Origin: Tricharina praecox
Lineage: Eukaryota
DNA: 64,000 nt
Direction of reading: 5' to 3'
Assembly: GCF_024521635.1 (NCBI RefSeq)
Contig: NW_026250403.1
Location: 930,001 to 994,000, forward strand
The translations under genes and the position numbers were made by a program. The notes beneath the pieces were generated by a model that was given only the letters and a program-made list of their open reading frames with translations, made no database searches and was not told where the DNA came from. The stretch's first letter is position 1; every line of letters starts with the position of its first letter. This document shows, piece after piece, positions 10,648 through 42,343 of the stretch.

Positions 10648-11568
10648 GTTAGAGCGATGTCAGTGTCGTGAGGGTGAATGTAGATATGTGTTAAGAGTTC
10701 TCAGCCCCGAACTCGTCGCAAAGGAGACCCCTTAGTTATGTAACACAAGGCATTATACACTGCAGAAACCCCCTCGTCCGATACGAAGACGCTCTATCAT
10801 CTACTTGGTCGGACATGGCCGTCGCAATCGGATCGTTTTAGTACCAGATAGCTGGAACTTCTCACGACGAAAACACACCTCAGGGCGTTCAAATCGACTT
10901 TCTCACAAACCCTTCCCCGCAGCCTCGGATAATCCTGGCCGATCCGATTTCCATGACAATATCCGAGTACTCTGCCTGTACTCGTAAATCCGCAACGAAG
11001 CATTAGCTACCCGGTCTTGGCACCATGGGCCTCCATGTCGCACAACTCAATTAAATCACCAGCAAAACCACTTGACTCTTCGTCGACAACAACCTATGAG
11101 CAGGCGTGCTCAATCACGAATTCGATAGGCATTATCCAGCAGGCGCTAGATTTCTACACATGTACCTAAACTAGATCTAGGTACCTATCATACATAATTT
11201 CCTACCCAGAACACAGAACGAAAGCCACAACTATTCCACGGTGGTTTGAGGTTTCTTTGGTATTTAGGTTTAGACTAACGTTTATATATACGAGGATTCT
11301 CGCTGACCAAGAAGCTCCTGTATCTTCTTTGCCTCATAGTCGAAGCCACTACGATTGAAAATGTCCACAACCCACAACCGCCCCTACTCGTACTTGGGCC
11401 TAGCAAAGAGTCGGACGACGCAATATGATCGAGTGCTATCGCATGATATACGCTAGTTGGCCCGTCGCCGGGTAAAACTAACAACGTGAAGAGACACGAA
11501 AGCGCGTCGACCGGCGGCCGACTCCTGCCTTGATTATTGCACCAAGGTCAATTATACACACCACAACC

Positions 11569-12929
11569 ATGAGCGACGACCTCGACGAAAACCCGCGCGC
11601 CTTTCTCGATGTGTGCATTGGCGACGACGGGCCCACTCGGCGCATAACAATCCGGTTATTCCACGAGGACACGCCCAAAGCCGTCGACAAGTCCGTTTCC
11701 CTCCTCTTCTTCCCGGCAGCAGCAGCAGCAGTGTTTTCCGGCGTCGCAAACTGACAGCAAACCAACCGATATGTAGCTTCCTCATGATCTGTCGCGGCGA
11801 CGCCGGATCAATAAACCTCACAAATCCCAATCGCCTAATCAGACTCTGCTACTCGGGCTGCACCTTCCACCGTGTGGTCGACGGGTTCATGATCCAGAGC
11901 GGCGACATAACGCTGAACGACGGCAGGGGCGGAATGAGCGTGCTCGATCAGATCCGCGACGAAGAATTCGTCGGCGATCCGGCGGAGGAGAAAACGTTCG
12001 AGGACGAGAACCTGGGCTGGAAATCGATGAACGAGGCCGGGCTGGTTTGTATGGCCAACCGCGGTCCCGACACGAACACGTCGCAGTTCTTCATCACGCT
12101 CGACGATTGCTCGTTTTTGGATGGGAAACATACGGTGTTTGGAAAGGTCGAAACAGGACTGGATGTCGTCAGGGATATCGGAAAGGTCAAGGTGGGAGAG
12201 AATAATAAACCGGTCGAGGATGTGGTGATTGTCGACTGTGGCCAGTATTTTCCCGAAAGCCCGCAGCTAAGTAACGACGGCGATGATGAAGACTGCGCCG
12301 TCGATGGAGATGGAGACAAACCGGAAGAAGGGGAGGAAGACGAGGAAATGAATGATCGGGAAGAACAGGACACGCCTAAGCATGGCGGCAAGACTGGTTC
12401 AACTACCGGTGGAAACGGAGCAGGAAGTGTTTTCGGAGGAGGTGGAGGTGGAGGCGGCGGCGGCGGCGGCGGTGGTGGTGGTGGTTCGAACAGCGCGCGA
12501 CCAATCGACGCTGACGACCGCGGCAGCTCCCCCAAACCTACCCGATCACCAGAATCCCATCACCAGCCTCCTCCTCCTCGTCGTCCTCGCTCGAGATCCC
12601 CCTCTCAGCGAAGACACCGCCGTCACCGCGACCATCACCACCGCCGCCGTTCGCGATCGCCCCGTCGCCACCACTCCCGCTCCCGCAGTCCCCGTCGCCA
12701 CAAGCGTCACCGGGACGACGACGAGGAGGAGTACACGCGTGACGATCCGGATGCGGAGGAGCGCATACTCCGCGAGGAGCGCGAGCGCGAGGGTCGTCGC
12801 TGGGACAACATGCCATCCAACTCCGCCGCCGACGAGCCTGAGGTGAAATTCAAGGGCCGTGGAACAATGCGGTATCGGGAGAGGAAGCGGTGGGGAGGTG
12901 CCGGCGACAGCTATGGCAGACTTAATTAA
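11569..12929 (+). CDS. Cyclophilin-type peptidyl-prolyl isomerase with acidic, poly-Gly and RS/RH-rich C-terminal extension
   Basis: Intron 11691-11776. Motifs FHRVVDGFMIQSGD, MANRGPDTNTSQFFITL, LDGKHTVFGKV; tail with RSRSP repeats ending VKFKGRGTMRYRE. Confidence 0.93.
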
Positions 12930-20009: not shown

Positions 20010-21270
20010 ACCAAGTCGAGGACTACGCTTGACCTAGGTATGGCCATTCATGTTCATCGCCGCGATGTTAACACAAGCCATCCACCTCTATCGAGGGCGG
20101 CGAAAGTTCCCCGTTTGCAAGTTGTAAGATGTAGGCCGAGTGAGCCCGGCGGTCTACCTTACACTTTACGGTACATACGAGAGATATGGCATCGACACGA
20201 ACAATGCAGCTGCTGTACTACTACCGGTACTGGTACCGGTATCGATACCGATGCTGTGCACTGCAACTTGGAACGAACATCCGGTCCCATAGATGGTAAA
20301 GATGGTGATAATGAAAGCACTGTATGCATACATGCATATAGCAGAGTACTCGTACATACTTGAGCAACACAACCAAGCCTCCGCCAACCGGAGCGACGAC
20401 ATCCTTGCGGACGATCACGAGGCTATGCCTTCCTTCATTCGCCCTCTATTCTTCCAGAACGCCTCGCCCTAAACCTTGGCGTACACACACGAGATCGACG
20501 CTGTGGTTGTGGGCCAAAATTTCTGGGTCGGCCTTACGCTAACTGCAGGTAACTATCCGCCGTATACATTGCAAGGGGTGGGGGGACGGGGGGATGTGCA
20601 TGCCGGTGTTGCTTGTTTTTCTTTTTTTGCCTGTGCCCGGGCGGATTCGCTGGATTCGGTCAATATCTTCGTCGTCGAAGACGGGATAGAGATAGAGATA
20701 TTGATGGGGTGCTGGAGGGATGGATGGACGAGGCTCCGTGATGGGTCGGGGTTACGTAAATCCGCAGCAGAAGCAACGGCAACGGCTCCATGCTAGATAG
20801 TCAAGTGCACCTCCGGAATTCTCAGCACGTTGAGCCTCGAGGCAGACCGCATACCATACATACCTCCTACCTGGTATTCAGGTAGTCGACTGCGCTCGTG
20901 CGAGACCAGGGTTGCACTACCTACGCATTATTCCTTTCTGGCTGTACCACCATGAGTCCTACGCACGTACGCACGGTATACGAGACCAGTACCTAACTAT
21001 GTTTCGTTTCGTGGAGATCTCGGGGCTCGGAAGTAGCAGTGGGAGTTTGAGGCCGTGTTGGAAGGCGTACTCCAGCCTCAGGGCGGAAGTATCTACATGG
21101 TGGGGAGGTGGGCGGGTGATAAATATCCATCCTCCCCCTCCTCCTCAGCACCCAGTACTTCCCCTCGGCATCAGTCACAACAGCAGCAATATCAATCATC
21201 ACTAGCTCTTACCCTTCCCCATACATACACACAACCCCCCAATCCACACCAACAAGCAAGCAAGCAAAGC

Positions 21271-21542
21271 ATGTGTTTCGGCTCCCGCTCCCGCCCGCCC
21301 GCCTCACCCAGCAGCGAGCCCTTACCGCGGCAGCAGCCGACCAAGCCGCCGAAGCCTCCCAAGGTGAAAACCGCAAAGGCGTACCCATCCTCGTAAGCAC
21401 TACACTTCCCTTCCCCTTCTTCTTCTTCCATTACTGACATGCGTGAAGACGTACTAGTGGCACCAGGGCTTGGGGCGGCGGCGGTGGTGGAGGAGGTGGT
21501 GGAGGGTGCGGTGGTGGTGGCGGCGGTGGCGGTGGGTGTTGA
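21271..21542 (+). CDS. Small MC-start, Pro/Lys-rich protein with poly-Gly/Cys tail (family member A, ~68 aa)
   Basis: Exon 1 21271-21392 MCFGSRSRPP...KAYPS; phase-2 intron GTAAGC..CTGAC..TAG 21393-21457; exon 2 GTRAW-G11-C-G9-C-stop. Confidence 0.75.
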
Positions 21543-21830
21543 GATTCAAGGAGTACAAATTGGTGGTGGTGGAGGGAGGAGAAATGGGAGCTGGTGAAGG
21601 CGGTCTGGAGGGAACGCGCGGTAATCGGGTGTTTGTGTGAAGCGTATGTGGTGCATTTGTTGCTGCGGAGCGGGGGTGTGGGGAGTGGGGGGTTGTGATC
21701 GTTATATATTCTGAAGTTACAACGGCTGTTGGCTTGCAACGACTGGTTCGTGATGTGATATCGCTGTAGACAGTATGGACACTCAAGCTGATATGTAGCC
21801 ATGATCCAAACCTACGAAAATCTGGATATC

Positions 21831-21863
21831 GGGGGGGGGGGGGGGGGGGGGGGGGGCGGGGGG
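21831..21863 (+). repeat. Poly-G homopolymer (G26-C-G6)
   Basis: Read directly from the sequence. Confidence 0.95.
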
Positions 21864-22792
21864 AAGTGGCATCCTTCATTCCCTCTTGGAATCCCGATTC
21901 ACCACTCATCTCCAATCCTGACCCTTATCTTCGCCTTAGCAATCATCATTGCCACTAGTTATCGCTATTGTCGTTCGCCAACACTCGTCCCCACTCTCCT
22001 AAGAACGTAGTACTCGTCCCCAACCTGTCATCCAGCCAACGAACAATTCACTTCTTCTTGTCCCTCTTCTTATCCCCCATTCCATCTTTCTCTTCTTGCC
22101 GACTGGAGCGGTAGCAACGGGTGGCGGACGAGGCTTGCGATTGAAACATGCTTTTGTTTTTTCCTTGAGATTGAATAGCACTGTCATAATCTCACGAACT
22201 TCCGTGTACCGCGTCACCTCCGCGGACCAGGTCATGAACGATCACTCGCTATGTCGAGACACTTCCGTTATCCGTTCTCACACGGAGGTGCCGAGCGGCG
22301 GCGTGGGGCCTCTATCCGAGGCATCCCCGAGCCTTCCTGTATATATACCTTTCCTTCTGCCGTGTCTGATACTCAATACACTATCTCGCGATACCACTTT
22401 TCTTGACAAGCACTTCCAGCTCGAACCGAGTGATGTCCGTGATTCGGAGCGCCAAGCCGGGTCGGGACCTGGTAGAGGTTGGCTCGTGCTTGGAACCGCA
22501 ACTTCGGGTGTCCCGCAAACGAAACAACTACTTGCGCGAGCTATTCATCAACATTGACGCGTCATACGCCGCCAACAGAGGGCATTCTCTTGTCTATGAT
22601 ACCCTCGGTGCGGAACTGGCGAGGGTGAACGTGAACATGCATCAGATCCCAGCAGCGGTACCCACGACATCCAAGATGCCGAGGTCCTGGTACGGCTGCT
22701 GAGACATCCGCCTGCTATGTATAAGGCGACACCCGACTCGCTATATGGGCTCGCTTCATTCCCCCGCAAAAACGCATATCGATCTGGAAACT

Positions 22793-23852
22793 ATGGCCGA
22801 AGCAGCTGGATTCACATACCCTCCCACGCCTGTCGCCTGGCTCACGCGCGACCTGTTGGTGTTCGCCAACAGCATCGGCATCGAGAAGGACGAGCTCCAG
22901 TTCCTCTATGTACCGTGCCTCTCTCGCTCCTTCGCGCCCATCTTCGCACACGCTGAGGCTAATACTCTGTGCAGGAGCTGCATCCTGACTTCGCCGCCTT
23001 CCCCACGTATCCGATCATCCTCCCGTTCAAGCGCACGGACCAGGAGGTCATCGACTTCTACAAGTGGAGCGCGGGCGGGCCGGCAATCCCCGGAGTGCCG
23101 AAGCTGGATCCCCGCAGGATCGTCGACGGCCAGCGACATATCACCATCCTAAAGAATATCCCGCCGACATCTGCCGGAAAGGAGTTCGAGCTCCGTGCGA
23201 AGGTCGTCGGTGTGTACGACAAAGGCAAGGCCGGAACCGTGACCGAGGTCGAGAGCGAGCTGGTCGAGAAGAGCTCCGGAGAGGTGTACACACGCATCGT
23301 GAGCTCGTCTTTCGCTGTTGGCCAGGGCGGCTGGGGCGGTCCTAAAGGTTCGTTGAGCTTGCACTTGCACGTTATCCCGGCGTTGGACCGAGCTGACTGC
23401 GAGCAGGACCAAAGACGGTGAATTATCCTCCCCCCGAGGGAAAGAGACCGGACGCAAGCTTTTCGCAAGCCACCAGCCCCTCACAAGCCCTGCTATACCG
23501 TATCAATGGTGACTACAATCCGCTTCATGCCGATCCTACCATCGGCACAAAGATGGGATTCCCGGGCGCCATCTTGCACGGCCTGTGCACATGGAACATC
23601 GCCGCGCATGCGGTGCTAAAAACCTTCGGTGCCTCTGAAGCAGGCCGCCTGAAGTCGTTCCAGGCACGCTTTGCGTCGCCGGTAATGCCCGGCGACAAGC
23701 TGATCGTCGATATGTGGATCACCGGCAACAAGGAGGCGGATGGAAGTGAAGAGGTGATCTTTGTGACACGAGTGGACGGTGGGAAGGTGGTATTGTCGAA
23801 CGGACGAGCGCTGCTGTCCAAGGTTGAAAAGTCTGTTGGAAGCAAGTTGTGA
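22793..23852 (+). CDS. MaoC-like (hot-dog fold) peroxisomal enoyl-CoA hydratase 2 / dehydratase
   Basis: Introns 22910-22974 and 23348-23406. Hydratase-2 motif YRINGDYNPLHADP...ILHGLCT; C-terminal SKL (PTS1). Confidence 0.92.
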
Positions 23853-24839
23853 GTTTTTTGCACGAAGCGACCGCGTGAATACATTACCTGTATGTACTCT
23901 ACTTGATATGCCGAAGATTGCCGGAGGAGGGGAGGGAAGAACCTCAACGGAATCATCAGGAATTCGAGTGCTTTTTTTCCTTTGAGTCTTTTTTTCATGA
24001 AAAGTACTCTTGCTGTTCCTCCGGCACGCAACAACCGTGTGCACCGTGATTCGCTTGGTTCGTCTGATTGGCGATAAGCTATTTGTTTACTCTGCTTCTA
24101 CATATCACGGAACGGGGCGAGCAGGCCCGGTTGTGCTTGCTTATATGCTTAATCTCCATTCGTCTAGACTGCGGACATGGCCTAGAAGTGGTGCGGTCCC
24201 GTAGAGTGCTCTAGCATAGAGTAGCATCTAAAGCATCGCGAGCTTCCGGCGCCTTCGCACAGCTTCTAAGGACCTCCGAATCCATTCGACGTGTCCATTC
24301 CCTCATGTACGGCAATCAACCGTCAAGGCGATAAAGCGATGGCACCACTGGGAAAAGAAAACGCCGCAGATGATTTTCTCGTTTCTTCTTTTCTTTTCGA
24401 TGGTTCTTGATGGGATGGACAAACAAACCATGACAGCTGCAGGCATTTTTGTTCCTGCCCCTCGTTTGGCCCCCCGCCAAGATGAGAGCCATCCCCCTCC
24501 CCACCCGCGTCATTATTATCGAAACAACTCACAGCTTCAATTTGCACTCGCGCACCAAGCGGGCAAAGCTGGCAGACTATCATCATGCTACGTACCGGCA
24601 ATATCGTAATGAGCTACCCCTCACTAGCAGCACCCACTGCCACCTCCCCACGGGCCTCCTCTTGGTCCCCCTTCCCCTCTCCTGCTTGTAAAAGATAGCT
24701 AGGGAAAGAAGTACTATATAGATATACCTTCTTCTTCTCCATCATCCGTTCCCATCAAACCATCCCCTATCATCTCTGCTCTCATCGAACCGAGTTCTCT
24801 GATACCCCACAGCGTCGTTGAATTTGACTTGATTCCGTC

Positions 24840-26935
<2,096 letters not shown>

Positions 26936-27430
26936 ATAGCTAGTGGTCTTTTTTCTTGGTTTTTTTTTCTGCTTGAGGGGGAGTTTGTTTCATTATCATT
27001 TTTCATTTTGTGTATCAGAACCTGATGGCGGGGGCACTGTTTTTTTTTTACTACCTATCTGCGTGGCACAAAAGCCATTGGTTGAAGAAGGTGGGAATGC
27101 CGTAGTAGCGGAGGAGGATCTTGCTATCAGAAACCAAAATCAAGATTTCCAACCGACCGTTTCACTTACACGAAGAGTAGATTCGTTCGTCGTAAAGTAG
27201 GTCATAGTTCGAAGTCTATTCTAAGGTCTTTTCCAAAGGTCTACCCCACATCGGCATCGGTATCGACAACCCATGAGCCGTGTCGACGGCCGGGGCCGCC
27301 GACTTCCACCACCACTACCACCTCCGAGCGTGCGGCAGCAGCAGCAGATCTCAGACTTGCTCGTGATAAACTATCAGAGCTACCGCGCAAACTGGCCGGC
27401 CAGCTGCAGCCCCAGCCCCACGACCGCTAT

Positions 27431-27844
27431 GTGACAGCTCCGGAGGGGGAGGCCCTTCCAACAACCAGCCCGGAGGTTGGTGAGAACCAGACTCCTCCAG
27501 AAGAAGACTCTGGTGGTGGTGGTGGTGGTGGTGGTGGAGCCGCCCACCACCAGTCGGCCCCACTCCCTCCCGCCGCCGCCGCGCCCAGTGGGGGTAATAC
27601 TGCGCCTCGACCCGCAGCCACCGCGAGATCCGAAGACGGGCGCCGATATTCACTGGACGAGGTTCTGGAGCGGCTAGAACGAATGGGCTTCCTGGCAGAA
27701 TATCGGCCCAGACAGGCGGTCCTTCGCGCTTTCGACGAGAGCGTGCTGTGCGGCGGTGACTCGCGAGGAACGTTTGGAGCTGGCTATGGATCCCAATATA
27801 TGTCTGCGGGAAAGTTAGGGAATGTTGGGGAACGCAGCGCTTAG
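27431..27844 (+). CDS. Possible hypothetical protein (true start not found)
   Basis: Open frame reads protein-like (RRYSLDEVLERLERMGFLAEY) and stays open upstream, but no in-frame ATG was located. Confidence 0.25.
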   Translation: MTAPEGEALPTTSPEVGENQTPPEEDSGGGGGGGGGAAHHQSAPLPPAAAAPSGGNTAPRPAATARSEDGRRYSLDEVLERLERMGFLAEYRPRQAVLRAFDESVLCGGDSRGTFGAGYGSQYMSAGKLGNVGERSA

Positions 27845-28473
27845 GAAGAGGAAGGGGTTTCGCTCGTAGTGAAAAGGGAGGCCCTCCGGCCCCGGATATG
27901 TGTACTGGTAGAAGCGTTTGGCGATGGAAACGATGGATGGGACTGCACGACCGGCTGTGTTATTTTCCTTCCCGCTGCTTTGGGGGAATACCTGGTTTAT
28001 GATATTGTACCATATCGTGATGTCACCGTGTCTTGCCTTCTTGTTTTCTTTTGTTTACGTACTACCTACAAGGTTGCGGCAGCGGTGTCTCACTAGAGTT
28101 AGATACTCTCCATAGCTTCGCTGGAACGTATGGCCGTCCGTAAGCGGCTTCTGGTCTGTCCTTGGCTTGGCTTCTCTCAACCGACTTTCATTTCCCAAGT
28201 ACGATAAGTCAGATAAGTTGCTTGCTTGCTTGCGCCATCCCACCTACCATCCCGGATACAGCCATAGACAGACAGACCACCTTACAAGTTCCGTTCAGTT
28301 CACCATTACATACCATCTCTTTCAAGCTATCGCAACGAAAACACAAACAAACTCTACTCCTCGATCCCATACATACACGATTGTGCACGCCCCACCCCGC
28401 CCCGTACAAACACAGAAACATTTCACACGCACACCCACGCACACACCTCACACACCACACGCACGAAACGACA

Positions 28474-30267
28474 ATGAGCAGCAGCAAGGACAACAGCAAG
28501 GAGGAGGGCGCCGGTGTTCCCCCCGCGGCCAAGAGTTCGTGGGGACCGTTCTTGAAGGTATTACCATTGCCGAGTTTCAGCGCCGAGGGAAAGGAAGGAG
28601 GGGTGGTGGTGGTGGGAACAGCATTTGGGGATGGCGGGCGGGGAGAGAGACATTGGAAGAGCTCTGCTAAAGTCACGGTATTGCGAATAGTCGATTGCGA
28701 GCTTCACGGGCGATTTGGCGAGTTTGACGGCTCCGGTATGAACTCTCCCCCTGGACATGGCGAGGTGTGGATGGCATGGCGGGGGGGCTGACGATGCGGG
28801 TGGGGGTGGTGCGTGTGCAGCCGTTTATTCTGAGCTCTACTAGCTTGACGGAGTATTCTAGCTACTGGGTACGTTTTTCTTCTACTCCTTGAGGACGATA
28901 TGGGGGGTGGGTGCTCGTAGGGAATGGTGGGTGTGTGTGGCGGGGGAAGGCGGCTGACGATGGTGCGGGGTCGGAATAGGCGGAACACCCGGAGCTCTTC
29001 GTTGCGCCGGCGCAGGAGAAGGATGCGCAGAAGCGTGCTCTATTGGTGTTGAAGTGGTTCTTGTCCACGCTGAAGCAGCAATACAGCTCCAGGAATGAAA
29101 AGCTGTAAGAGGTTCTCGATGGATACGCGGGGGAGGGTGGTGTTGACCTTTGTGCGCTAGGGGCTCCGAGAAGAAGCCGTTGAACCCATTTCTAGGAGAG
29201 CTGTTTTTGGGAACTTGGAAGGATGAGACCGACACCATTGGGGAAACGAAATTGATTTCGGAGCAAGTCAGGTATGTATGGATGATGGTCTGAGGGATTT
29301 TGGGGGAGGGGGTTGCTGATGTTTGTGCGTGTAGCCACCACCCTCCCGTCACCGCGTATGCTATCATCAACGAGAAGCACGGAGTCAAGCTTGAGGGTTA
29401 CAATGGACAGAAGGCGTCGTTCTCTCGGGGCGCGATAAACGTGAAGCAGGTCGGACATGCTGTCTACCATCTCAAGGGGTTTGACGAGCACTGTGGGTTA
29501 CCAGGAGGCGCGTCGATGCCTCGCTTGTGCTGACCAAGTATCAGATCTCATCACTCTTCCTTCGCTCCATATCGAAGGTATCGTCTACGGCTCGCCTTAC
29601 GTCGAGCTCAACAAGAGTTCAACCATCACGTCGTCCACAGGATACGTCTCTACCATTGACTACAGCGGCAAGGGATGGATCTCGGGAAAGAAGAACAGCT
29701 TCACCGCGACCATGACGAAAGAAGGCAGCAAGGAGGTGCTATACACTGTCGATGGGCAGTGGACGGATAAATTCTCCGTCAAGGAGGGCAAGACCAAGAA
29801 CGAGGTAGATATTCTGTTTGAGAACCGATAACAAGCGCGGTTGAACAGCAAGCTGACCTGCGGCGTAGCTCGATTCGTACAACGCCAAAATCACAAAGAC
29901 TACCCCTCTATACGTCGCACCCCTCGACCAACAAGATCCGCTCGAGTCCCGCCGGGCATGGGCGAAGGTGCAGGAGGCGATCGGCAAGGGCGACCTTGAG
30001 ACTACCGGCGCGGAGAAGAGCAAGATTGAGAACGAGCAGAGAGAGTTGCGCAAGAAGGAGAAGGAGGAGAACCGGGAGTGGGAGCGACGATTCTTCACAA
30101 GGGTTGACGAGAACCCCATCTTCACCAAGCTCGCCGAGAAGCGCGAAATCACCGCCGAGGCTGACAAGACCAACGGTATCTGGGTGTTTGACGAGGCTAA
30201 GTACGCGAAGGCGCATGCTCCCGTGGAGACGGTGGTTCCGGCGGTGGTTCCTGCGGCCGAGTTGTAG
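28474..30267 (+). CDS. KES1: Oxysterol-binding protein, Kes1/Osh4 type
   Basis: Many short exons giving [26 protein letters not shown], the OSBP signature [18 protein letters not shown] and [13 protein letters not shown]. Confidence 0.92.
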
Positions 30268-30846
30268 GATGGTGTTTGTGGGAGGCGCCTACTGTCTATA
30301 GAGCCGAGTAGATGATGAAATATGGGTATTTGTAGTGGCCTGACGTTTGCCGCAATCGATCCGTGGGTGTGCGTAGAATTAATGTCGTACTGCCTTTGCG
30401 TGCTTCTTCGTTCTATTTTTTTTTCCGAAGGATTTTCCAATTTCATGACCGGTCCACTTATTTCGGTTTTCGTGGGGAATTTTTCTTTTTCGAAATGGTT
30501 ATCCGGAAACGGAGAAATCTGCTCATCGGCAGGATGCGAGAACCCCACGGAGCGGCGAGGGCAGCGGACAATCTCGTAATGAAACAAAAGGCTCAGTTCG
30601 CCGAAGTTCGCCTCGGTTGGTCTTGGCTATCGCACATCATTCGAATCGGCGTGGTTTCTTAGAGCGGGGTGTGGTTGCTAGGTGGGGTGGTGAGGGAAGC
30701 GGAGTTTCATTTAACACAACGACCCTTCCTTCCCTTTCTCTTCTTCACTTTCGCCGAACGCAAAACAATAATAAATCACAAGCAACCGAATTCTTTACCG
30801 ACCACTACCCGCACCCATCCATACCCGTATATACTCTACAGCAGCA

Positions 30847-31855
30847 ATGGTAAGCTCATCTGCGTCTGTTTCCTTCCTTCGTTCCATTTCATTGCGTGAA
30901 AAGAAACGGGACAATGGCAGAAACAGCGAGACGACGAGTACAGCAGCAGCTAACCATTCTCGCGGGCGGGATCAAGGTCGCCCCTCGCAAGTTCTTCGTC
31001 GGTGGTAACTTCAAGAGCAACGGTACTCTCGAAAGCATCAAGGCTATCGTCGAGAACCTCAACAAGGCTGAATTGAAGGGTGACGTCGGTCAGTCCCCAT
31101 TCCCTTCGGTGCGGCAAGGTACATAACGTAGCAACTTCTAACGACAACAACAAAAAAAAACAGAGATCGTTGTCGCTCCTCCTGCGCTGTACCTCCTCCT
31201 CGCCAGCTCCCTCATCCGCCCCGAGATCAAGGTCGCCGCCCAGAACCTCTACGACAAGGGCAACGGCGCGTACACCGGCGAGATCAGTGCGCAGCAGCTG
31301 CACGACGCCTCGATCGAGTGGGTGATCCTCGGGCACTCGGAGCGCCGCTCCATCTTCGGCGAGAGCGACGAGTTCGTCGCCTCCAAGACCAAGGCTGCGC
31401 TCGACGCCGGCCTGTCGGTCGTTCTCTGCTGCGGAGAGAGCCTCGAGGAGCGCGAGAAGGGCATCACCACCGAGGTTGTCACCAGACAGTTGGGCGCCGT
31501 TGCTAAGGTCGTCAAGGACTGGAGCAAGATCGTCGTGGCCTACGAGCCCGTCTGGGCTATTGGTACCGGAAAGGTCGCTACTACTGCCCAGGCCCAGGAG
31601 ACCCACAAGGACATCCGTGAGTGGATGGCCAAGACCGTGTCCCAGGAGGCCGCCGAGAAGACCAGGATCCTGTACGGTGGTTCCGTGACCGAGAAGAACT
31701 CGGCCGAGCTGAGCAAGCAGCCCGATGTTGATGGGTTCTTGGTCGGTGGTGCTTCCTTGAAGCCTGCTTGTAAGTTGGCCCGTTTGTGTGAAATGACGAG
31801 GGATGAATGCTAATGGATGCCTGCAGTCGTTGACATCATTAACTCTTCCGCGTAA
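30847..31855 (+). CDS. TPI1: Triosephosphate isomerase
   Basis: ATG-only first coding exon (intron 30850-30976); [37 protein letters not shown]. Confidence 0.98.
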
Positions 31856-32121
31856 ATAAACATGGTAGTCTGTCGGGAGGGGCTATTGCGAAGAATGAAG
31901 GAAATAAACGGATGCCGTGAATGCGGCTTCTTCGGTATCATTTCGTCATCAGTGTGAATGGCGCAATGAGCCCTTGCGGATCCGTGATCTTCCGAATCGT
32001 CTACGGTGATGGCGTAGCCCATTTCACGAGTGATAACACATGATTGCTCTAGCATCCCAAACAATTGCTCCGCCGACAAAAGAAATGGTACCGTAAAAAG
32101 AAAGAATGTTACCCCAAAAGC

Positions 32122-33026
32122 CTAGCTAATCAAGCACAAACACACGAGCGCGAAGTAAAATATCGCAAGCGGGAAGACAGCCAACGCAACGCGGTTCCGG
32201 ACCACACCGCTGCCGCCCAGTATACTCACTCCCGCGGCCAAACTCCACAGGAAGCAGACAGTATACACCGGGACCCGGATGACGGCGTACACACGGAATG
32301 CGCTCAGCAGTGCACATATCACTATCGGGAAGAGCGTGTAACCGATAACACTGACGGCCTGAAAGAACGAGCTGTTCCGGGTCAGCCGTGTTAGCCCTGC
32401 ACCTCTCTCATCCGGGGGAACGGCGGAACGTACATATTCCCACCCAACAGCCTGATCTGCGCCGTAACCACCGCCTCGCCAACCCACACCATGGTGAACA
32501 CCCCCGCAAACACATCTGTCTTCTGCTTCTCATTGGCGCACATGCTCAGCAGCGTCGACAAGGCGAGACAGAACAGCAGCGGGCCCCAGAGATCCCATTC
32601 GCGCAGCTCCAAGCCGCCGCGCTCGCCATGCGACAGCACGTCGTTCGCGTCCGGCCACTTGCGGAATGTAAACTTCGGGTAGAGCACGGCCTTCATCTTC
32701 GTCCAGACGGCGAGGATGTCGCGCGAGAGGGTGTCCCACACGGATTCATCGAGGGTGTTGGTCGGTGCGCGGCGGTCTTCGCCGGGGATCGCCGAGGTCA
32801 GCGATGACGGGTTGAGCGGTGCGCTTGCCGAGGTGTTGGCGGCGTCGTCGAGCGGGTCGTCGGCGGAGTTGATGGAGACTGTACGCCGGTGGTGGGGTTA
32901 GCTGCGGACTGTGCTGTAACTATGCCTGCGCCGGGGTGGGGTACACGCACGCGTGTCAGGGTCGATGATGTCCTGTTCGATCCGCGAGCTGTCATAGGTG
33001 TTTTCGTAAGGGTTTGCGGACGCCAT
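32122..33026 (-). CDS. Yip1-domain Golgi membrane protein (Yip4/YIPF6-like)
   Basis: MASANPYENTYD start; NTLDESVWDTLSRD, LREWDLWGPLLFCL, SFFQAVSVIGYTLFP, LAVFPL; two introns. Confidence 0.88.
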
Positions 33027-33709
33027 AGCGGTGGTGGTACTGGTGGTGGTCGAGCGTTCGGTTGGCGGAGACGAAGGTGGTGGATGCGGTGCGGTGACAG
33101 TTGACTCGTGGTGTTTCGTTTCGAGCTGCGGCTAAGGTTGAGGCTGACGTATCCCCCCCTTAGCTCTGGTTACACCCATTCAACTCAACTTGTCTCACGA
33201 GTCCCGAGTCAACGGCTCAACTTCACGACTCTAACATCACCGTTTCAGATCGGGTGAGATGCCATTTCAACTCTTCAGTATAACTACGCTTAGAATTGGA
33301 ATGAATGAAAATTATACTTGGAGCCGTACACGAGATCGAAGGGCCACTGTAGAACTTCCGGCTGGCACGGCGAAGTTTGAACACCTACAAGGACCTATTC
33401 ACAGGCATTGAAGTGTACTTTTCCGACATCTTTCAAGTTTCTACAAAATACCTCTTTCTGCTGCTCTCAATGACTCGGATGTCTGGACGGATATCTCGGG
33501 TGTTGCAATTGAGCTCGATCATGAGCTCCGGTTCCGTTCTACCGGACACACCCACTCGGCAACCTTGTACTAACAAGCTTCGATCTACCGCACCTAGTGA
33601 AACTTCAACGCCTGCCGTCGCTTGTACAACCCCACTTCACCCCACCAGTGACCACCCGCAATATCCGTCTTCACCACCACCACCATAACACACATCACCA
33701 ACCAACGCA

Positions 33710-34246
33710 ATGCTCGCCCTCCGCCGCGCCCTCCCGCGTCTCGCCCTCAGTGTCCGGGCCAACAGCACCGCGGCGACCGCGCCGCCGCCGCTGCTGACGA
33801 CGCTACGCACCGACCTCAAGACGGCGATGCGGGCCAAGAACCAGATCCAACTGTCGGTGCTGCGCAGCCTGTTGGCCGACATCACGAACGCGCAGAAGAC
33901 AGCGACGCCGCCGAACGACGACCTGGCGATCCTGCAGATCATCAACAAGACGCGGCAGAAGAGTGCGGTGTCGATCGACGAGGCTCGCAGCGTTGGCCGC
34001 GAGGACCTGGTCGAGAAGGAGCAGGCGCAGCTCTCCGTGCTCGACGAGTACGCAAAGCTAGTGGATACCGTGGATAAGGAGGAGGTCGTGAGCGTCGTCG
34101 AGACTGTGCTCGCGAAGCTGAAGAGCGAGGGCGCCAAGACCGCGATGGGCGATGTCATCAAGGCCGTTGCTAAGGAGCTGGAGGGACGTCCGGTCGTCAG
34201 GTCGCTGGTGGCCGAGGCTGTAAAGGAGGCGCTGGCAAAGAAATAG
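33710..34246 (+). CDS. AIM41: Mitochondrial Aim41-like protein (YqeY/GatB domain)
   Basis: Arg-rich presequence MLALRRALPRL; DLKTAMRAKN...VLRSLL, GREDLVEKEQAQLSVLDEY, MGDVIK. Confidence 0.85.
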   Translation: MLALRRALPRLALSVRANSTAATAPPPLLTTLRTDLKTAMRAKNQIQLSVLRSLLADITNAQKTATPPNDDLAILQIINKTRQKSAVSIDEARSVGREDLVEKEQAQLSVLDEYAKLVDTVDKEEVVSVVETVLAKLKSEGAKTAMGDVIKAVAKELEGRPVVRSLVAEAVKEALAKK

Positions 34247-34611
34247 ATGCGCTCCCCCTCCCCCACGAAGAGAAGAAGATGGTTGTATGATATGATGGAA
34301 GGTGGTGGGAAAAGCACTGTACATTATGGGTTACCTGGTCACTGCTGAAGCAAATTGTACTTGTAGAATCCATTGGGAGCTTATGCTCCTCTCTATAAAA
34401 CTTAAAACAAACAGACCGAGCCGCCCATACCAAACAAAGGAAACCCATTACAAACTAGTAGCCGTAATTAACCAATCCCTAATACTCATCTATATATCTA
34501 ACCAACGCTCAATACCCCCACAGCACCGGATCCACTGCAATCCACGGCCACGGTAGAAACGATTGCTACTTCTTCACCATTAGTCAGTACCATGTATGCA
34601 CTTCCCCCAAA

Positions 34612-35433
34612 CTAATATATACTCACATATCCAACAGTAATCCCATCCTTCTGACACTTCCCCCTCCCCTCCTCCAGCACGCTCAACAGATACGTACTCC
34701 GGACCATGATCTCCTCATACCTCACATCATACTCGCACGGGCCCTGCCCGCCATCCTCCACGCACGCACCAGGCGCATCGACCCAGGGCCTGCGCTCGAT
34801 CAGGGTCGGCTTAACGCGCAGGGCGATATTTGCATGCTGATCGAGCCACAGGACCTGGCTCTCCTGGGTATTGAGCTCGTGCCTTCTCAGGCGGAAGACG
34901 GTCTCGCCGCTGACCCGCGCCAGCGCCGAGAACAGCGAGCCGCTCGGCCCGAACTTGACAAGGATGTTGTTTGCACACAGCTGGATGAAGCCCTGTCCCT
35001 CGTCGAGCGTGCAGTGCGTGCTCATCGAGAAGTCGGTTGTCACCGAGGGGTCGTCGCTGCGTACCCGTGGCGAAAAACGGCTGTAGATGTCGCTGGGCTT
35101 GCGCGTGTCCCGTGTGGGTGGCGCGCTGTACCCTACGCGGTGGCATTGTTGGTACGAAGTCAGGCTCTGGGTTATGGTTAGCTGTGTGAGAGGCGAGCTA
35201 TTGGGGATGGGGGAGCGTACTCGTCGTGCGGGGGTCGAACAGCCAAAAACGAAGGTGTAGCCTCCCAGCTCCTGCGACTTCCGGAGTCGCTGGATAAGGA
35301 CGGATCGGATCGTTTCATTGATCCTGTGGGAGATGGTGTTGATTTTCAGCAGCTCTTTGGTGGGAATGTTCTGGAGGATGTCGTAGAGGAGCTCCTCAGG
35401 GAGGGTAGATAGTTGTGATGATGAGAAAGTCAT
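34612..35433 (-). CDS. F-box domain protein
   Basis: N-terminal LSTLPEELLYDILQNIPTKELLKINTISHRI F-box motif; probable in-frame 54-nt intron 35220-35167. Confidence 0.75.
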   Translation of the reverse strand: MTFSSSQLSTLPEELLYDILQNIPTKELLKINTISHRINETIRSVLIQRLRKSQELGGYTFVFGCSTPARRVRSPIPNSSPLTQLTITQSLTSYQQCHRVGYSAPPTRDTRKPSDIYSRFSPRVRSDDPSVTTDFSMSTHCTLDEGQGFIQLCANNILVKFGPSGSLFSALARVSGETVFRLRRHELNTQESQVLWLDQHANIALRVKPTLIERRPWVDAPGACVEDGGQGPCEYDVRYEEIMVRSTYLLSVLEEGRGKCQKDGITVGYVSIY

Positions 35434-36719
35434 TGTTTCTGCGTGTGTGTTTGGTGCGGACGATTTTCTTCTATGATACTTGATTTGCTTTGAGCTGGAC
35501 AATACCGGAATGAGGAACTCGAATGGAGCGGAGAACATTGTAGGTTTTATAGAATTTTCAGCAGGAGGGTTGGCCCGGCACGGCGAAGTGTAACCATCGA
35601 CAATCGAAGGGATATATCGGGTGGTCACATAACAGCAGGTATGTAGGAATTTGCACATTCAGCTCCCGGTTACCTCATATCTATGAGACCTTGAGCTCGA
35701 CGTGGTGTGGTCGGTGGTTCGACCGCCTAGAAATGGGCATCCCTATGCGATCCGAGTCCGAATACTGGGATGCCGGGTTGATCGGTTGTCGGACGAGGGA
35801 AAAAAATAAAAATAAAAAAGGACGGGTGGCAGGCAGGAGATCATCATGCACGTATAGATTGCTAGTAACTGTTCGCTTGATGGGATTGGATTACAGTGTG
35901 ATTCCCGAGGAGGTGGTGTACGGGGTGCGCCAATGATCAAATGGTGAAGGCATTGAACAACGGCGGTGTGGACTGGATTGGACGGGCTGTGGGGTCCGCG
36001 CGGACCAGAAGGAAAGGGCTTCCTGAATGACGATGGTAAAAAAAAGACCCTTTTGTGGGTATCATACATACTCTACATGATGCCCGTTATGTCACGGTCA
36101 AGATAAGCACCGTTCAAAACAGTACCCGGGCGGCATGGCATCATGCATGGCAAGTATGATACATATTGTTGGATACACCCTTTTTTCCCTCGAAACGGCT
36201 TCGGAAGTGACATGGACTTACGTCCCCGTCCGGAAAAACTACACACGCAAAAGTATCGCCACCTACGGAGAAACTGGCCAGATGCTCTACACGGCACATC
36301 ACTCGACGGGTGAGTGAGCTGACCTCACGCGGTCGGTCGGCTGCACGTCCCTATGCGACGGAGCTAGCCTTACCGATAGTCAGGGTGAGCTATAATGCGC
36401 TGTCGCCGAGCCGAATTATCCTCAGTTGGCCAGTCCGGCTTCTAAGCTTCCGATAGGTACCAATCCCTTTTTTGTTTGTTGTCGATGGCTTGATTCCCTT
36501 ACGATCTACCCGCGGTGCCCTGCTCTACGTATTACTTCTAACGGTTGTTCGAGAGCATGCTTTCGCTGACCACCCATAGTCTTCAAAATGCGTTCTCTAC
36601 TAGATACCTAGTACCTTGAACGCATCAAATCTCCGGATAAACATCCCTACGCCAACCCAACGGTCAAGTTAGCCCAACCCCTTGTAGTATGCATGCACGT
36701 GAATGAACCGGAAAACAAC

Positions 36720-37547
36720 TCACACTCTCCTTCGGAGGACACACTCCCGCCCGATCCTCCTTCCGACCTCCAAGTCCACCTCCGCAAAACACAGCTCCTC
36801 GTCGCCCGCCCCCTCTCCCTCGCTGCACCTAGCCACAACCGTCCCCCACGGATCGATCACACACGCGCCGCCCCAACTCGAGCGCTTCTCACTATGCGCG
36901 CCCGCCTGTGCCGGCGCAACGACCCAACACTGGGCCTCGACCGCCCTTGCTCTCAGCAGCAGCTCCCAATGGGCGCGGCCAGTCGGCACCATGAACGCAC
37001 TCGGATAGGTGAGGAGCTCTGCACCCCTATTTGCCAGCCACCGCGCGGCCTCCGGAAACCGCACGTCGAAGCAGATCTGTAGGCCGAGCAACCCGGCGGG
37101 CGTGGCGAACGGCGCACAGAACTTGTTGCCGGCCACGGTCGTGGCGGACTCGGTTAGTGTCGCGCCCGGGATCGCGACGTCAAATAGGTGCAGTTTCTGG
37201 TAGCTGTGCGATATACCCCCCGAGGCCGAGATGTAGATGCAGCTGTTGTGCACTTTCCCGGCGTCCCCCGAGGGCGTGTGGATGCCCACGACGATAGGCA
37301 GCGAGTGCGTCTTTGCGCTCTCCTGCAGTCCTAAGACGAATGGTGAAGTCTCAACCGCCGTGCATAACTCAAGTGTTTCGGCCGGTGTCCGAGAGATGTA
37401 GTCGCTTGCTTCGGGGAGGAAGAGGATCTTTGCGCCGTGGGAGACCGCGCGCTGTAGCAGACGCTGGCAGGCGGCGAGATTCGCCGAAATGTTGTGTGTG
37501 GCGCAGAATTGGCCGCAGGCTATCAGCGTTGGCATTGACGTTGCCAT
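36720..37547 (-). CDS. Carbon-nitrogen hydrolase, Nit2(yeast)/NIT1-type deaminated-glutathione amidase-like
   Basis: Glu-Lys-Cys triad motifs FLPEASD, YQKLHLFDV, ICFDVRFPE; TGRAHWELLLRARAVE. Confidence 0.92.
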   Translation of the reverse strand: MATSMPTLIACGQFCATHNISANLAACQRLLQRAVSHGAKILFLPEASDYISRTPAETLELCTAVETSPFVLGLQESAKTHSLPIVVGIHTPSGDAGKVHNSCIYISASGGISHSYQKLHLFDVAIPGATLTESATTVAGNKFCAPFATPAGLLGLQICFDVRFPEAARWLANRGAELLTYPSAFMVPTGRAHWELLLRARAVEAQCWVVAPAQAGAHSEKRSSWGGACVIDPWGTVVARCSEGEGAGDEELCFAEVDLEVGRRIGRECVLRRRV

Positions 37548-38256
37548 TGGTGGTGGCGGTGGTTTGTGGGGTGGTGTGATGGGCGGTGGTGTGGTTGTTT
37601 CGGAGCTTCGAGTGCGTCAAGTAGAGTATCGATAAGATGTCCCTGCTGGGATGAGGGGAGCTATGGCCAGTGCTGCCATCGTGTGTCACTCGCTGATCAG
37701 TGATCGACGGCCAAGTGATATGTGTGTCGTTTGTTCTTCGAAGCAGATCACCGCTTACCTACCAGTCCAGCCTGACGTGCCGGAATATCCTACAAGATGT
37801 CTACATGAATGTACTCCACATACGCGTGAACATCGAAACACGTCTCCGGCCGCGTGAAGGCTGGGGATTTCCGCCGCACTCATGATATCAATACCGCTGT
37901 ATAACGTACTACGGCAGGCATTGTATAAAATACCAATTGAGTACTTGTACGATGGGCTTGGAATATCTCGCTATGTATTGCACTCGTACGATAGACTCGG
38001 AACAGGCCTCCCGCTCTGTATGGCACTCGCAGAGTTCCGCTTTCCTTGAGTTACCTATATCGTGTATCACCGTTGAATGCAGCCATCTCACTCGGGCCAA
38101 AACCGCCAACACCTTGCCCATCTCTCGCATTCCCTCGCTCCCTGCCTCCCTTTCTCCCTGCCTCCCTTTCTCCCTGCCTCCCTTTCTCCCTCCCTCTTCC
38201 ACCGTACCGCAACCTCTAACAACGAACACTCTCCAACAACAACACAACGACAAGTC

Positions 38257-38589
38257 ATGTGCTTCGGCCGCAAACCTTCCCCCGCCTCGGCCGACCCGGC
38301 TTCTCCTGCCGCCGCCGTCCCTGCCGCTACCCCCGCCGGCAACGTCGTCCAGCCGGAAACTAAGAAGAAGAAGAAGGGCTTCGGTCTGTGGCCGGACTTC
38401 TCGGGCTCAGGGTAAACTCTCTGCTCTCACCGTGGATGGGGATTCAGTCGGTTCTGACAGAAGCGATATAGTGATGGTGGTGGTGGAGGCGGTAGTGGTG
38501 GTGGTGGTGATGGTGGTGGTGGCGGCGGCGGCGGTGGTGGTGGAGGGAATGGAGGCGGCGGAGGCGGAGGAAATGGCGGCGGAGGTTAA
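38257..38589 (+). CDS. Small MC-start Pro/Ala/Lys-rich protein with poly-Gly tail (family member B, ~90 aa)
   Basis: Exon 1 38257-38411 MCFGRKPSP...KKKKKGFGLWPDFSGS; phase-2 intron GTAAAC..CTGAC..TAG 38412-38471; exon 2 is Gly runs punctuated by D/S/N, then TAA. Confidence 0.75.
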
Positions 38590-40210
38590 TTGACGAAGGA
38601 AGCAACTGTTCAGCTGAGAAGCGGTGTATTTGCATGATGAAATGAAATTCAATGATCACCGTCACCGTACTGGATGTTGCATACCGTGAACTGGTTGTGT
38701 AGCCCGACAGCAACCGCAGGACCGCAATATCCGTTTGTTCAGGATCAACTCTTCTCACAACACGACAAGCCATCTTGGAAACCACCATCTCTTCGCATCT
38801 TCACCCCGCCTAGCCCCAATTCTTCGCAATCACTAGAACCACATGTGCAGTTTCTAATAGATCAAGACTTCGGGTCTCCTTTCTGTATTCTCACGGTTTC
38901 CTTCAAGGGCAGGCCTCGTGGGAGGAGGTTACGAGAGGTGTGAAGAAGACGGACAACGAGAGGGGAAATCCTTAGTACCTATGTAGCAGTATGCCGTCGA
39001 ATAGTCGCGCAGTAGAGACGACCTCAATCCCCCGAAGCCTGATGCCGCAACCTTACTATCATTCTGTTCTGCTGATGCGCCGATCTCTTGATAGTCCGAT
39101 TGGCCTTTTCGGAAGCTTTGGGGATACCGTAGGCCTTTGTATCGCCTTCAAGTATCGCCAGGTTGCCCCCGAATTCCATTCGATTGACCCCCGTTGCATG
39201 CATTCCCCAGCCCATGAACGTCGAACATTTGCCCTGCCAACCGGAAGCCATTGGCGTACCTATCATACCTATCATACTGCCACCTATGACGTGTGTGCAG
39301 GAGCCCTGCCCGTCCAATAAGATACTTGTCCAGACTCCAGAGTTTCCCAGCCGCACACGGGTACCTAAGTCTGTCCTCCCTGCGTGATGATAGGTATTCT
39401 GCCTTCCCACCAGCGCGGTCGGTTGTCGCTCTTATACATGTGTATAAGAGCGTAATTAGACCTAACGGGCTCCCCAATCCAAGGGGGCTGGGGGTGGACG
39501 TGTTGACAGCAGGTTTGAGGCTTGCCTTCAAAAAGCGCGAGATGGAACGGAGGGGGTCGCGAGAGGGGTGGGCGTCCCTTCCAACAGGGAGACGGTGGTG
39601 GGGCGGGAGTATCTACTCGCTCAGAGCACGCTCATTGGCTGTGGGGGCAGCACATACATACCGTACCCCGAGGCGAAGATATCGCGGGATATGTATGTCG
39701 ATAGGCCAACCGAGGGCTGAGAATTTGAGATGAAAGCTTTAGTTAGTGGAAAGCGATTCGTTGTGTTGTGCCGTCGTAGGCCAAATCAAGTTACCAGTAT
39801 GTATGTAAAGGAACCAACGGAGCAATTCTAACATGTACGGTACATACGCAAGTGATATCTGATGGAACTGGCTTCATGCGCTTCTCCTAGGTACCTGGTT
39901 AGCCCACGAACATGGCCACCAAGGCAGATGGACACTGTAGTTGGCAGTAGCTAAACGAGACGATTGTGGATATCAGTGTAATAATAGAGGATATGGTAGA
40001 TCCGGTATGTGCTGCGCATGGTTATCTGCTGATACGAGGTGAGAGTCGGTGATCGTGGACTAACTGCAAGGCTCATTACTTAAGGCAATCACTAGTAGCG
40101 TAACTACGCGAGCCGCTCCTCCCCATGTAGTTACACGTTAGGGCTGTATCCAACAAACAGATCCCCATCGAGAATCGCCGTATCGTCAGATAAGCATTAC
40201 TAAAATTTGC

Positions 40211-40293
40211 AGGTTCCAGTAGGAGGTTCCAGTAGGAGGTTCCAGTAGGAGGTTCCAGTAGGAGGTTCCAGTAGGAGGTTCCAGTAGGAGGTT
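40211..40293. repeat. Perfect 13-bp minisatellite (AGGTTCCAGTAGG)x6.4
   Basis: Six identical units plus AGGTT read directly; no spacers. Confidence 0.95.
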
Positions 40294-40763
40294 GCCCGTG
40301 TGGCTGTGCACTGTGCAGTTGTGTCTTGTTAGCTGAGTGACCAGGGTTCGTAGTAATACTCATTCATGGTTAGCCGGATGCGCAGCGCGCAGCGCGCAGT
40401 CTCCATTCACGCCCGTCGCTAACTAACCGCTACCATCTACACACTGGAAATTTCCCCTGGCTGTCGGCTGTTTTATTCCAGTCATGCAATTTATGACTGA
40501 GTGATGCTGAGCCTGCCTCGCTCGCTTCCATATGGTGTCACGATGCCAACTTCTCCGACGACGAGTGCGCCTACTGGCGCTATGGAATCATGGAAACCAA
40601 TCTCAACTGTGCGTTCGGTAGACACAGACATAGCCTTGCGTTCATGGCTATGGTCTATGGAGGTATACCGATGAGTCCTCCTAGGTACTAGGCAATGTAG
40701 ACATCTCCACTCTGAAGGCTGAATATTGGATGCTGCGTCTATCTAGAGCTCCGGGTGGGTACA

Positions 40764-40769
40764 TATAAA
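40764..40769 (+). promoter_or_regulatory. Putative TATA box of family member C
   Basis: TATAAA about 130 nt upstream of ATG 40896, followed by a CA-rich leader. Confidence 0.5.
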
Positions 40770-40895
40770 GCTTCATCCATCACCTCTCTCTAGCTACTTC
40801 TCATCATCAGCAACATCAACAATATCAGCAACATCAGCCAGCAAACCAACAGCATCGAACAGTCCAGACCACCCAACAGTCCAGTCCATCACACA

Positions 40896-41355
40896 ATGTG
40901 TACCGGCCTCTTCTCCCGCTTCCGCCGCAAGCAGCCGGCACCCGCATCGGCACCTACCCCCGTGTCCCAGCTGGCTCGCCCAGCTGTCTCCCTGCCGGCA
41001 GCAACACCAGCGCCGGTCCGGGCCGCTACCGCCCCGGTCCAAGCTCCTCCCGCTCCGGCCTGGGCTATTCCCGCCGCGGCACCCCCGCGCCCGCCGCCGG
41101 CACCCGCACCAGCACTAGCATCAACGCCGGCACCATACCGCGCTCCTCCGGCTCCGGCCCCGGCGCCCGCTCCGGCGCCCGCTCGCCCCGCGCAAACTAG
41201 CCATTACGGAAGTAGCAAGTATGCCCCCCCCCCTTTCCACACACACACGCATATGGAGAGATTAGTGGCTGACCGTTTGTAGTGATCATTCTTCTAGCGG
41301 AGGCGGTGGCGGTGGTGGCTGCGGCGGTGGAGGCGGTGGATGTGGCGGTGGTTAA
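40896..41355 (+). CDS. Small MC-start Pro/Ala-rich protein with poly-Gly/Cys tail (family member C, ~131 aa)
   Basis: Exon 1 40896-41218 MCTGLFSRFRRKQPAP...HYGSS; phase-2 intron GTATGC..GCTGAC..TAG 41219-41282; exon 2 DHSSS-G7-C-G6-C-G3-stop. Confidence 0.78.
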
Positions 41356-42343
41356 TATGTTGAAAGCCTTTCATGTGTGTTGCGACTTCAATGGGATGTA
41401 TACGATCCAGGGGCACGTGGCTGGGCTGTATATTCTAGACATTGCGGAGTGGGTAGATAGGAAGCTTTGAGTAGTTAATATGATCGATTATAACCATAAT
41501 ATGGTGGAGGAGGAAATTTCTGATACCTTTGCCCATCTTAGCAATGCCGGTGAATTTCTTCGTGAGGACCACTGCGGATGTGCTTTGCTTACCATCATGA
41601 GTACCACCCTGTCGGTGCTATACTTGCGGTGTCGGCAGACCATGAATAGCAGCTCGGCGGGGAATGTAAGTGGGTAGTCGACATCATTCTTGCTCTAGCC
41701 CACACCGAGTGATATCTGTTTGGAACTGGCGTGTAGAGTGAGAGCGAGAGACGGTACATATTAACAGCCGTCCGCTGCGGACTCGGCTTTGAGAGGTTTG
41801 GGGAGGGTATTGTTGTTATCATTTGCGTACTCGGTCAGTTGATTTCGTGTTTGGTGAGGAGGAATCTTGGTGTGGAGACATAAGGGAGCTTCGCAACTTG
41901 GAATCCGAGAGGTAGTTTTGGCGCGATACCAAGCAATACATACCAAATTAGGAAATCATCAAGATTCTTCGGAATTGATTGATCCATCCGACTTTTAAGG
42001 CGTAAACCTCTTGGCGAATTAAATGAGCTGCGATCTTCACCTTCCGCCAGTCGCAGCTTCGGGCCGGTGATTGCAGAGGAATAGTGTTTTTGACCCTAGA
42101 GACAATATCATGTTCGGTGCTGATTCAGTCCCTTCTTCTGAACGCTGTGTGTCTTTGAATGACACTGCATGGAACATGAATGGGTCTACTGAGAAGCCAT
42201 GCCTCAGGGTTGCGTTCCCGCGCATCCCCGTTAGCTACCATTAGCTCGTAGCGGCTTAACCGACGTCACCTCCACCCCACCTCCGAGCTTCCCCCCGCAA
42301 CCTCAACCAACACCACAGTTTCTACCGTCCTCCACATAGCGTC

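Follow-up and report, generated by a model that had tools for sequence, protein, structure and literature searches.

Three dispersed loci of Tricharina praecox with a shared Met-Cys head, a predicted phase-2 intron, and a poly-Gly terminal exon resemble a family of small genes

Within a 64,000-nucleotide (nt) stretch of Tricharina praecox DNA (assembly GCF_024521635.1, contig NW_026250403.1, forward-strand positions 930,001 to 994,000; referred to as the window herein and numbered from its first letter), we analyzed three small loci on the + strand, L1 (21271-21542), L2 (38257-38589), and L3 (40896-41355). Both the sequence and its translation bear out what a first-pass annotation had claimed for these positions, namely starts of MCFG, MCFG, and MCTG, each followed by a basic patch and a Pro/Ala-rich spacer. 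We lean toward reading L1-L3 as three paralogous two-exon genes for small, basic, disordered proteins, in a family that is probably restricted to one lineage. We infer that L1-L3 are likely to be real genes, spliced and translated into small basic disordered proteins of the cytosol. Three parts are conserved among them: the N-terminal head; the single predicted intron, in its phase and in its position after an aromatic-x-x-Ser stretch; and a poly-Gly run at the C terminus, the end of which coincides exactly with the stop codon.

The introns were predicted from sequence signals alone, and each locus has one predicted phase-2 intron of 60-65 nt with a CTGAC motif and a TAG acceptor (Table 1), as the first-pass annotation had described. 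CTGAC occurs once per predicted intron, at 20 (L1), 14 (L2), and 10 (L3) nt from the 3′ end. At all three loci, two bases of a codon are left in exon 1 and exon 2 begins with TG, and the short stretch leading up to the intron is similar, reading AYPSS in L1, DFSGSG in L2, and HYGSSN in L3. The intron-like elements at ORF (open reading frame) junctions of the neighboring BRO1/ALIX-type and phosphoglucomutase genes measure 58-65 nt and carry similar signals. Downstream of the intron, the second exon proved to be nearly pure Gly at the three loci, also as previously claimed, and a stop codon immediately follows the Gly run in each case. When left unspliced, L1 and L2 stop at the TAA of the donor (TCG TAA and GGG TAA, respectively), and L3 reads through the intron to the acceptor TAG, which yields an ORF of 128 amino acids (aa). 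Since the unspliced frames end at these codons, plain ORF lists give cut frames of 99 (L1), 112 (L2), and 128 (L3) aa, which agrees with the earlier remark that the loci are truncated in the ORF track.

Upon aligning codons by hand, we found a head common to the three loci that consists of MC[FT]G, 0-7 residues, and then R-(K)-x-P-x-P-A-S. The P-A-S codons are CCC GCC TCA in L1, CCC GCC TCG in L2, and CCC GCA TCG in L3, and Cys2 is encoded by TGT, TGC, and TGT, respectively. Between L2 and L3, the eight hand-aligned codons of RK.P.PASA specify seven identical residues and one replacement, and four of the seven identical residues differ synonymously at the third base. Though the numbers are small, this codon pattern of the head is what constraint at the protein level would produce. 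MAFFT alignment of the three first exons found little that could be aligned past the start. The middles cannot be aligned, in keeping with the earlier remark, and the shared head is longer than had been noticed. With introns and upstream regions, MAFFT revealed a likeness in composition only. Pairwise blastn matched the tails and also gave a weak collinear match of L1 to L3 (61% over 202 nt) that starts in the TATA region and reaches the first codons. Taken together, these comparisons show that L1, L2, and L3 are paralogous loci. The proposal of an under-annotated small-gene family is therefore retained, as the loci are related, look like real unannotated genes, and have a conserved intron position.

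Starts that encode MC[FT]G were found at five of the 2055 ATGs on both strands of the window, with L1-L3 accounting for three of the five. The remaining two begin ORFs of 34 and 18 codons that lack the rest of the architecture. With the looser pattern ATG-TGY-NNN-GGN, eight sites were found, five of which open ORFs of at least 40 codons; the two beyond L1-L3 start with MCSG, one of them lies antisense to a BRO1/ALIX-type ORF, and neither opens with a basic and Pro/Ala-rich sequence. Gly tracts were tallied by tract and frame, which gave 13 to 15 rows in the 64-kb window. An intron-like element, defined as a donor and a CTRAY located 8-30 nt before YAG with a length of 45-99 nt, connects an upstream ATG ORF with the Gly frame, reading frame intact, in 3 of 15 rows, and these are exactly L1-L3. 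Distinct intron-like donor sites on the + strand number ∼43 per 64 kb, or ∼1 per 1.5 kb, with real introns counted in. By these counts, the co-occurrence of head, intron signals, and in-frame Gly tract at L1-L3 is beyond chance.

Nine ORFs, eight of them with Pfam matches, supplied the table by which codon usage was scored. Exon 1 scored 0.31 per codon in L2, 0.16 in L1, and 0.03 in L3; coding windows scored 0.17 ± 0.11, and the gene-free gap at 38650-40850 scored -0.26 ± 0.17 over all frames (95th percentile -0.01). For exon 1 of L2, the proposed frame is clearly the best and both alternatives are negative. When L1 and L2 were extended upstream in frame, the added stretches scored -0.11 and -0.06 per codon, respectively. 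The leaders are free of ATG over 166-180 nt and poor in G (11-20 G per 150 nt), and the base at -3 is a purine throughout (A in L1, G in L2, and A in L3). TATA-like elements lie before L1 and L3 (Table 1) and at -333 in L2. Because the element of L1 lies downstream of an ATG at 21097, MCFG of L1 would be the first AUG of the mRNA. We take the CT-rich repeat in the L2 leader or promoter (Table 1) to resemble the pyrimidine-rich boxes in fungal promoters that are strongly expressed. ORFs that run antisense across the tails (poly-Pro, 21431-21802; poly-His, 38444-38788) were considered as real genes and rejected, their non-repeat parts scoring -0.02 and -0.11 per codon.

Joining the exons by their coordinates gives predicted products of 68 (L1), 90 (L2), and 131 (L3) aa, all basic and of low complexity, with predicted isoelectric points of 10.3, 9.0, and 11.2 and a total of 3, 1, and 3 Cys residues, respectively. 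The highest Kyte-Doolittle mean over 19 residues is -0.09 in L1, 0.52 in L2, and 0.84 in L3. Since no 19-residue window in any product exceeds 0.84, neither a signal peptide nor a membrane span is predicted. The tails are encoded by imperfect period-3 repeats with higher-order units, at 76% (L1), 84% (L2), and ∼70% (L3) matches. The L3 tail contains 2.4 copies of a 21-nt unit made up of six Gly codons and one Cys codon, and the Cys residues of this tail are spaced because the unit was duplicated. With the L3 Cys residues placed within a duplicated unit and the L2 tail devoid of Cys, the Gly/Cys tail does not hold as a family trait, contrary to what had been proposed. The mix of Gly codons in the tails matches that of a poly-Gly run inside a cyclophilin-domain ORF of the window. 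Besides an acidic stretch and an end rich in Ser, Arg, and Pro, this ORF (11490-12929, + strand) has 17 Gly in a row in its interior (12435-12485), and it shows that mixed-codon poly-Gly can sit within a long Pfam-supported ORF of this genome.

Searches for relatives used the short, low-complexity first exons (unspliced frames) as queries, which have little power, so that blanks are weak evidence. A word-indexed protein search returned no candidate for L1 exon 1, 3 candidates for the 52-aa frame of L2, and 20 for residues 1-40 of L3, none of them at E ≤ 10. Using phmmer, the 52 aa of L2 matched none of 1.84 billion representatives at E ≤ 0.001. None of six ORFs, comprising the unspliced frames of L1-L3 and three neighbors, had an exact match in a protein collection, and hmmscan of six exon translations against Pfam-A gave no family at E ≤ 10. 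Among PDB sequences there was no match for L1 or for L2, and the ESM Atlas returned no usable match for exon 1 of L2 or L3. No match to a characterized family was obtained in these Pfam, protein, and PDB searches. Synteny by way of the neighboring CN_hydrolase in metagenome contigs led to one locus with 40% identity on a 1.7-kb contig, which was rejected as a relative. Literature searches brought up no paper with such a family in its title or abstract, and the head peptides, searched as text, match unrelated acronyms only. Likewise, the architecture of a shared head, conserved intron phase, and poly-Gly terminal exon does not appear in the available text of work on fungal orphan genes and microproteins.

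Table 1. Features of the three loci and of their upstream regions; positions are those of the window.
Feature	Position	Strand	Description
L1 exon 1	21271-21392	+	40 codons + 2 nt; MCFGSRSR head, basic patch, Pro/Lys-rich spacer
L1 predicted phase-2 intron	21393-21457	+	65 nt; GTAAGC...CTGAC...TAG
L1 exon 2	21458-21542	+	short linker GTRAW, then G11-C-G9-C; TGA stop
L2 exon 1	38257-38411	+	51 codons + 2 nt; MCFGRK head, Pro/Ala spacer, K5, GFGLWPDFSGS end
L2 predicted phase-2 intron	38412-38471	+	60 nt; GTAAAC...CTGAC...TAG
L2 exon 2	38472-38589	+	Gly at 33/38 residues, the rest D, S, N; without Cys; TAA stop
L3 exon 1	40896-41218	+	107 codons + 2 nt; MCTGLFSRFRRK head, then ~90 residues Pro/Ala
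L3 predicted phase-2 intron	41219-41282	+	64 nt; GTATGC...CTGAC...TAG
L3 exon 2	41283-41355	+	DHSSS, then G7-C-G6-C-G3; TAA stop
L1 TATA-like ATAAATA	21119-21125	+	152 nt before ATG; downstream of upstream ATG 21097
L3 TATAAA	40764-40769	+	132 nt before ATG
CT-rich 16-nt repeat	38138-38196	+	3.7 copies, 97% matches; L2 leader/promoter

Thirty ORF translations scanned from across the window matched BRO1/ALIX, MaoC, phosphoglucomutase, F-box, CN_hydrolase, cyclophilin, NRDE-2, PRP39, NIPA, M24, GDSL, and DUF2420, and the neighboring phosphoglucomutase carries a vertebrate/fungal C-terminal domain. These neighbors are ordinary eukaryotic genes and, taken with the short introns, suggest a filamentous fungus. 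L2 and L3 are the sole gene-like features between the CN_hydrolase gene, which ends at 37547, and ∼42.3 kb. This region of ∼4.7 kb (37600-42300) has no convincing ORF besides them and is sparse compared with the remaining window; a perfect 13-nt tandem repeat, AGGTTCCAGTAGG, occupies 40211-40293 in the gene-free DNA that separates L2 from L3 (6.4 copies, 100% matches). Rfam gave no matches over 19-43 kb. As for other G-rich and Gly-coding tracts, a G homopolymer of ∼33 nt (21831-21863, 93% matches) lies 290 nt past the L1 stop and would read poly-Gly in each of its three frames without being a GGN repeat, and a perfect (TGG)9 microsatellite is found at 27511-27537. An Arg-Gly-Gly-type tract on the - strand, G5-R-G4-R-G3-R-G3 (61601-61663), might represent an RGG box from a nucleolar protein or one that binds RNA.

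Several observations weigh against reading L1-L3 as a family of paralogous genes with a functional head. Neither an orthologue nor another relative was found with first-exon queries in protein, profile, or structure-sequence collections. A second frame of L1 scores nearly the same as the proposed one (total 5.5 vs 6.5), and the codon support for L3 is weak, with another frame equal. In-frame upstream ATGs are present at L1 (21097) and L2 (38077), and since the TATA-like element of L2 lies upstream of the in-frame ATG, a longer L2 product is possible. No word of at least 8 nt is common to all three upstream regions. Within the tails, the third positions of the Gly codons are GGT-rich and microsatellite-like, and because GGN tracts are common in the window, non-coding DNA included, a Gly tract by itself means little. 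Lastly, Pro directly after the heads of L1 and L2 leaves scant room for a helix. One could suppose that the loci are young, essentially neutral proto-genes, transcribed and perhaps translated, that arose when a small ORF was duplicated locally and its copies ran into a GGN microsatellite, with the similar heads as a remnant of duplication. This account, which we consider rather unlikely, accommodates the failure of both the word-indexed search and the search over 1.84 billion representatives to find a relative, the unalignable middles, the tails made of imperfect microsatellites with higher-order units, and the Cys residues that are not conserved in the tails; numerous lineage-specific genes are also described for Neurospora in the available text of one study (PMC10684091). 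However, it would not lead one to expect head residues that are kept despite third-position differences when the middles have diverged past alignment, and intron position, intron phase, and a stop right after the tract are kept in three of three loci. A stronger claim is that L1-L3 are not genes at all, with ORFs, splice-like signals, and GGN tracts thrown together by chance or by composition (a C-rich leader and a G-rich trailer). GGN tracts and the G33 run are indeed frequent in the window, CA/CT-rich DNA is open in many frames, and first-exon queries found no homologues. Nonetheless, a rare head (5/2055 ATGs) comes together three times, always on the same strand, with full intron signals in a common phase and with an in-frame Gly tract that runs straight into a stop, and the codon usage of L2 and L1 is coding-like, which makes this claim very unlikely.

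Other explanations accept the loci as genes and differ in what the product is or does. If the intron were unused or often retained, tail-less peptides of 41, 52, and 128 aa would be the real products, with the Gly tract in the 3′ untranslated region or added conditionally as a splice-gated tail. In keeping with this, the 5′ splice site creates the stop in L1 and L2, the L3 frame ends at the acceptor TAG, and the conserved sequence information sits in exon 1. Every phase-2 GTAA donor yields such a stop, however, and hence there is no signal in the stop itself; this account would also leave unexplained why the Gly frame is joined in frame and why a stop comes right after the tract at all three loci, and we regard tail-less products as quite unlikely. 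That the Gly/Cys tails are the cores of ribosomally made, heterocycle-modified peptides, similar to the microcin B17 precursor, is scarcely credible: the tails of L1 and L3 are long Gly runs with spaced Cys, but that of L2 lacks Cys, the loci are dispersed among housekeeping genes, and the 30 scanned ORFs of the window match ordinary cellular families only, with no recognized cyclodehydratase or dehydrogenase among them. The first-pass annotation had also raised an N-terminal Cys degron, by which the Met-Cys start would make the products oxygen- or nitric oxide-sensitive substrates of the Cys/Arg N-degron pathway, known from plant ERF-VII and animal RGS4/5/16. All three products do begin with Met-Cys, and their N termini are likely unstructured. 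Against this, the short introns with CTRAY branch sites in the window are a feature associated with filamentous fungi, and, according to the available part of PMC11773813, fungal phyla except Chytridiomycota lack the PCO/ADO N-terminal cysteine oxidases almost entirely. A degron is consequently extremely unlikely.

Under the favored reading of L1-L3 as three paralogous two-exon genes, evolution would be free to alter the Pro/Ala spacer as well as the tail in its length and impurities, the latter through slippage of the GGN repeat. By analogy with known lipid-anchored proteins, we offer the tentative and subordinate suggestion, itself rather doubtful, that the head is a membrane-targeting module composed of an S-acylated Cys2 and a basic cluster. 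Upon removal of Met, Cys2 beside a hydrophobic residue and the basic cluster would become S-acylated, and the acylated head would keep the protein attached to a membrane, from which the spacer and Gly tail would extend as a flexible, structure-free projection whose exact sequence is unimportant. A more elaborate version, which we judge improbable, is an undescribed fungal microprotein family that combines a lipid-anchored Met-Cys head with a splicing-controlled tail, so that tailed and tail-less membrane-bound forms could be switched. In such a switch, splicing of the phase-2 intron would add a pure poly-Gly terminus, and retention of the intron would end translation at the donor or within 21 codons. 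Small intron-containing genes for low-complexity proteins are easily overlooked by gene callers. If L1-L3 are expressed, they provide a compact and testable case of microprotein family evolution, with drift in the spacer and in a microsatellite-coded tail alongside a preserved short head and intron position. Should they prove not to be expressed, they would warn that a gene family can be mimicked by repeats and splice-like signals.

Among known systems, plant GRDP1/2 (DUF1399) and plant GRPs share with L1-L3 a glycine-rich C-terminal region. A relationship to GRDP/DUF1399 proteins had been put forward for the tails and finds no support here: unlike GRDP1/2, L1-L3 have neither DUF1399 nor another Pfam domain (E ≤ 10) and are far smaller, and the GRDP literature, in its available text, concerns plant proteins. 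The heads also differ from the signal peptide of a secreted plant-type GRP in being composed of Cys and basic residues rather than hydrophobic ones. CYSTM proteins are a tail-anchored family with a C-terminal Cys-rich transmembrane segment; L1-L3 have no hydrophobic segment and no Pfam match, and their tails hold 0-2 Cys in poly-Gly. Fungal copper metallothioneins contain many Cys in C-x-C or C-x-x-C arrays, as opposed to the one to three Cys in each whole product here. The microcin B17 precursor McbA ends in a long Gly run with interspersed Cys, which the tails of L1 and L3 resemble. In contrast to McbA, L1-L3 are eukaryotic and predicted to be spliced, no modifying enzymes occur among the 30 scanned ORFs of the window, and the L2 tail is without Cys.

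For the head, the closest parallel is offered by GAP-43 and RGS4/RGS16, peripheral membrane proteins that are S-acylated at an N-terminal head of Cys, hydrophobic, and basic residues. In L1-L3, Cys2 similarly adjoins Phe or Leu/Phe, with Arg/Lys 1-8 residues further on, and MCFGSRSR, MCFGRK, and MCTGLFSRFRRK each place hydrophobic and basic residues around a Cys near the N terminus. The rule that a single lipid combined with a polybasic stretch leads to membrane binding is stated for K-Ras4b (available text of PMC10940682). L1-L3 differ from the GAP-43/RGS type in that no sequence relationship was detected and in that the remainder of each product consists of a Pro/Ala spacer and Gly tail instead of a folded domain. 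As a class, L1-L3 can be set beside the lineage-specific (orphan) genes and microproteins of fungi. In the accessible portions of two reports, the microproteins of fungi are said to be under-studied and difficult to distinguish from incidental ORFs (PMC11413187), and the lineage-specific genes of Neurospora to be numerous and clustered (PMC10684091). Like these, L1-L3 are small, unannotated, without detectable relatives, and present as several copies near each other; unlike them, they share a defined head, an intron phase, and a poly-Gly terminal exon.

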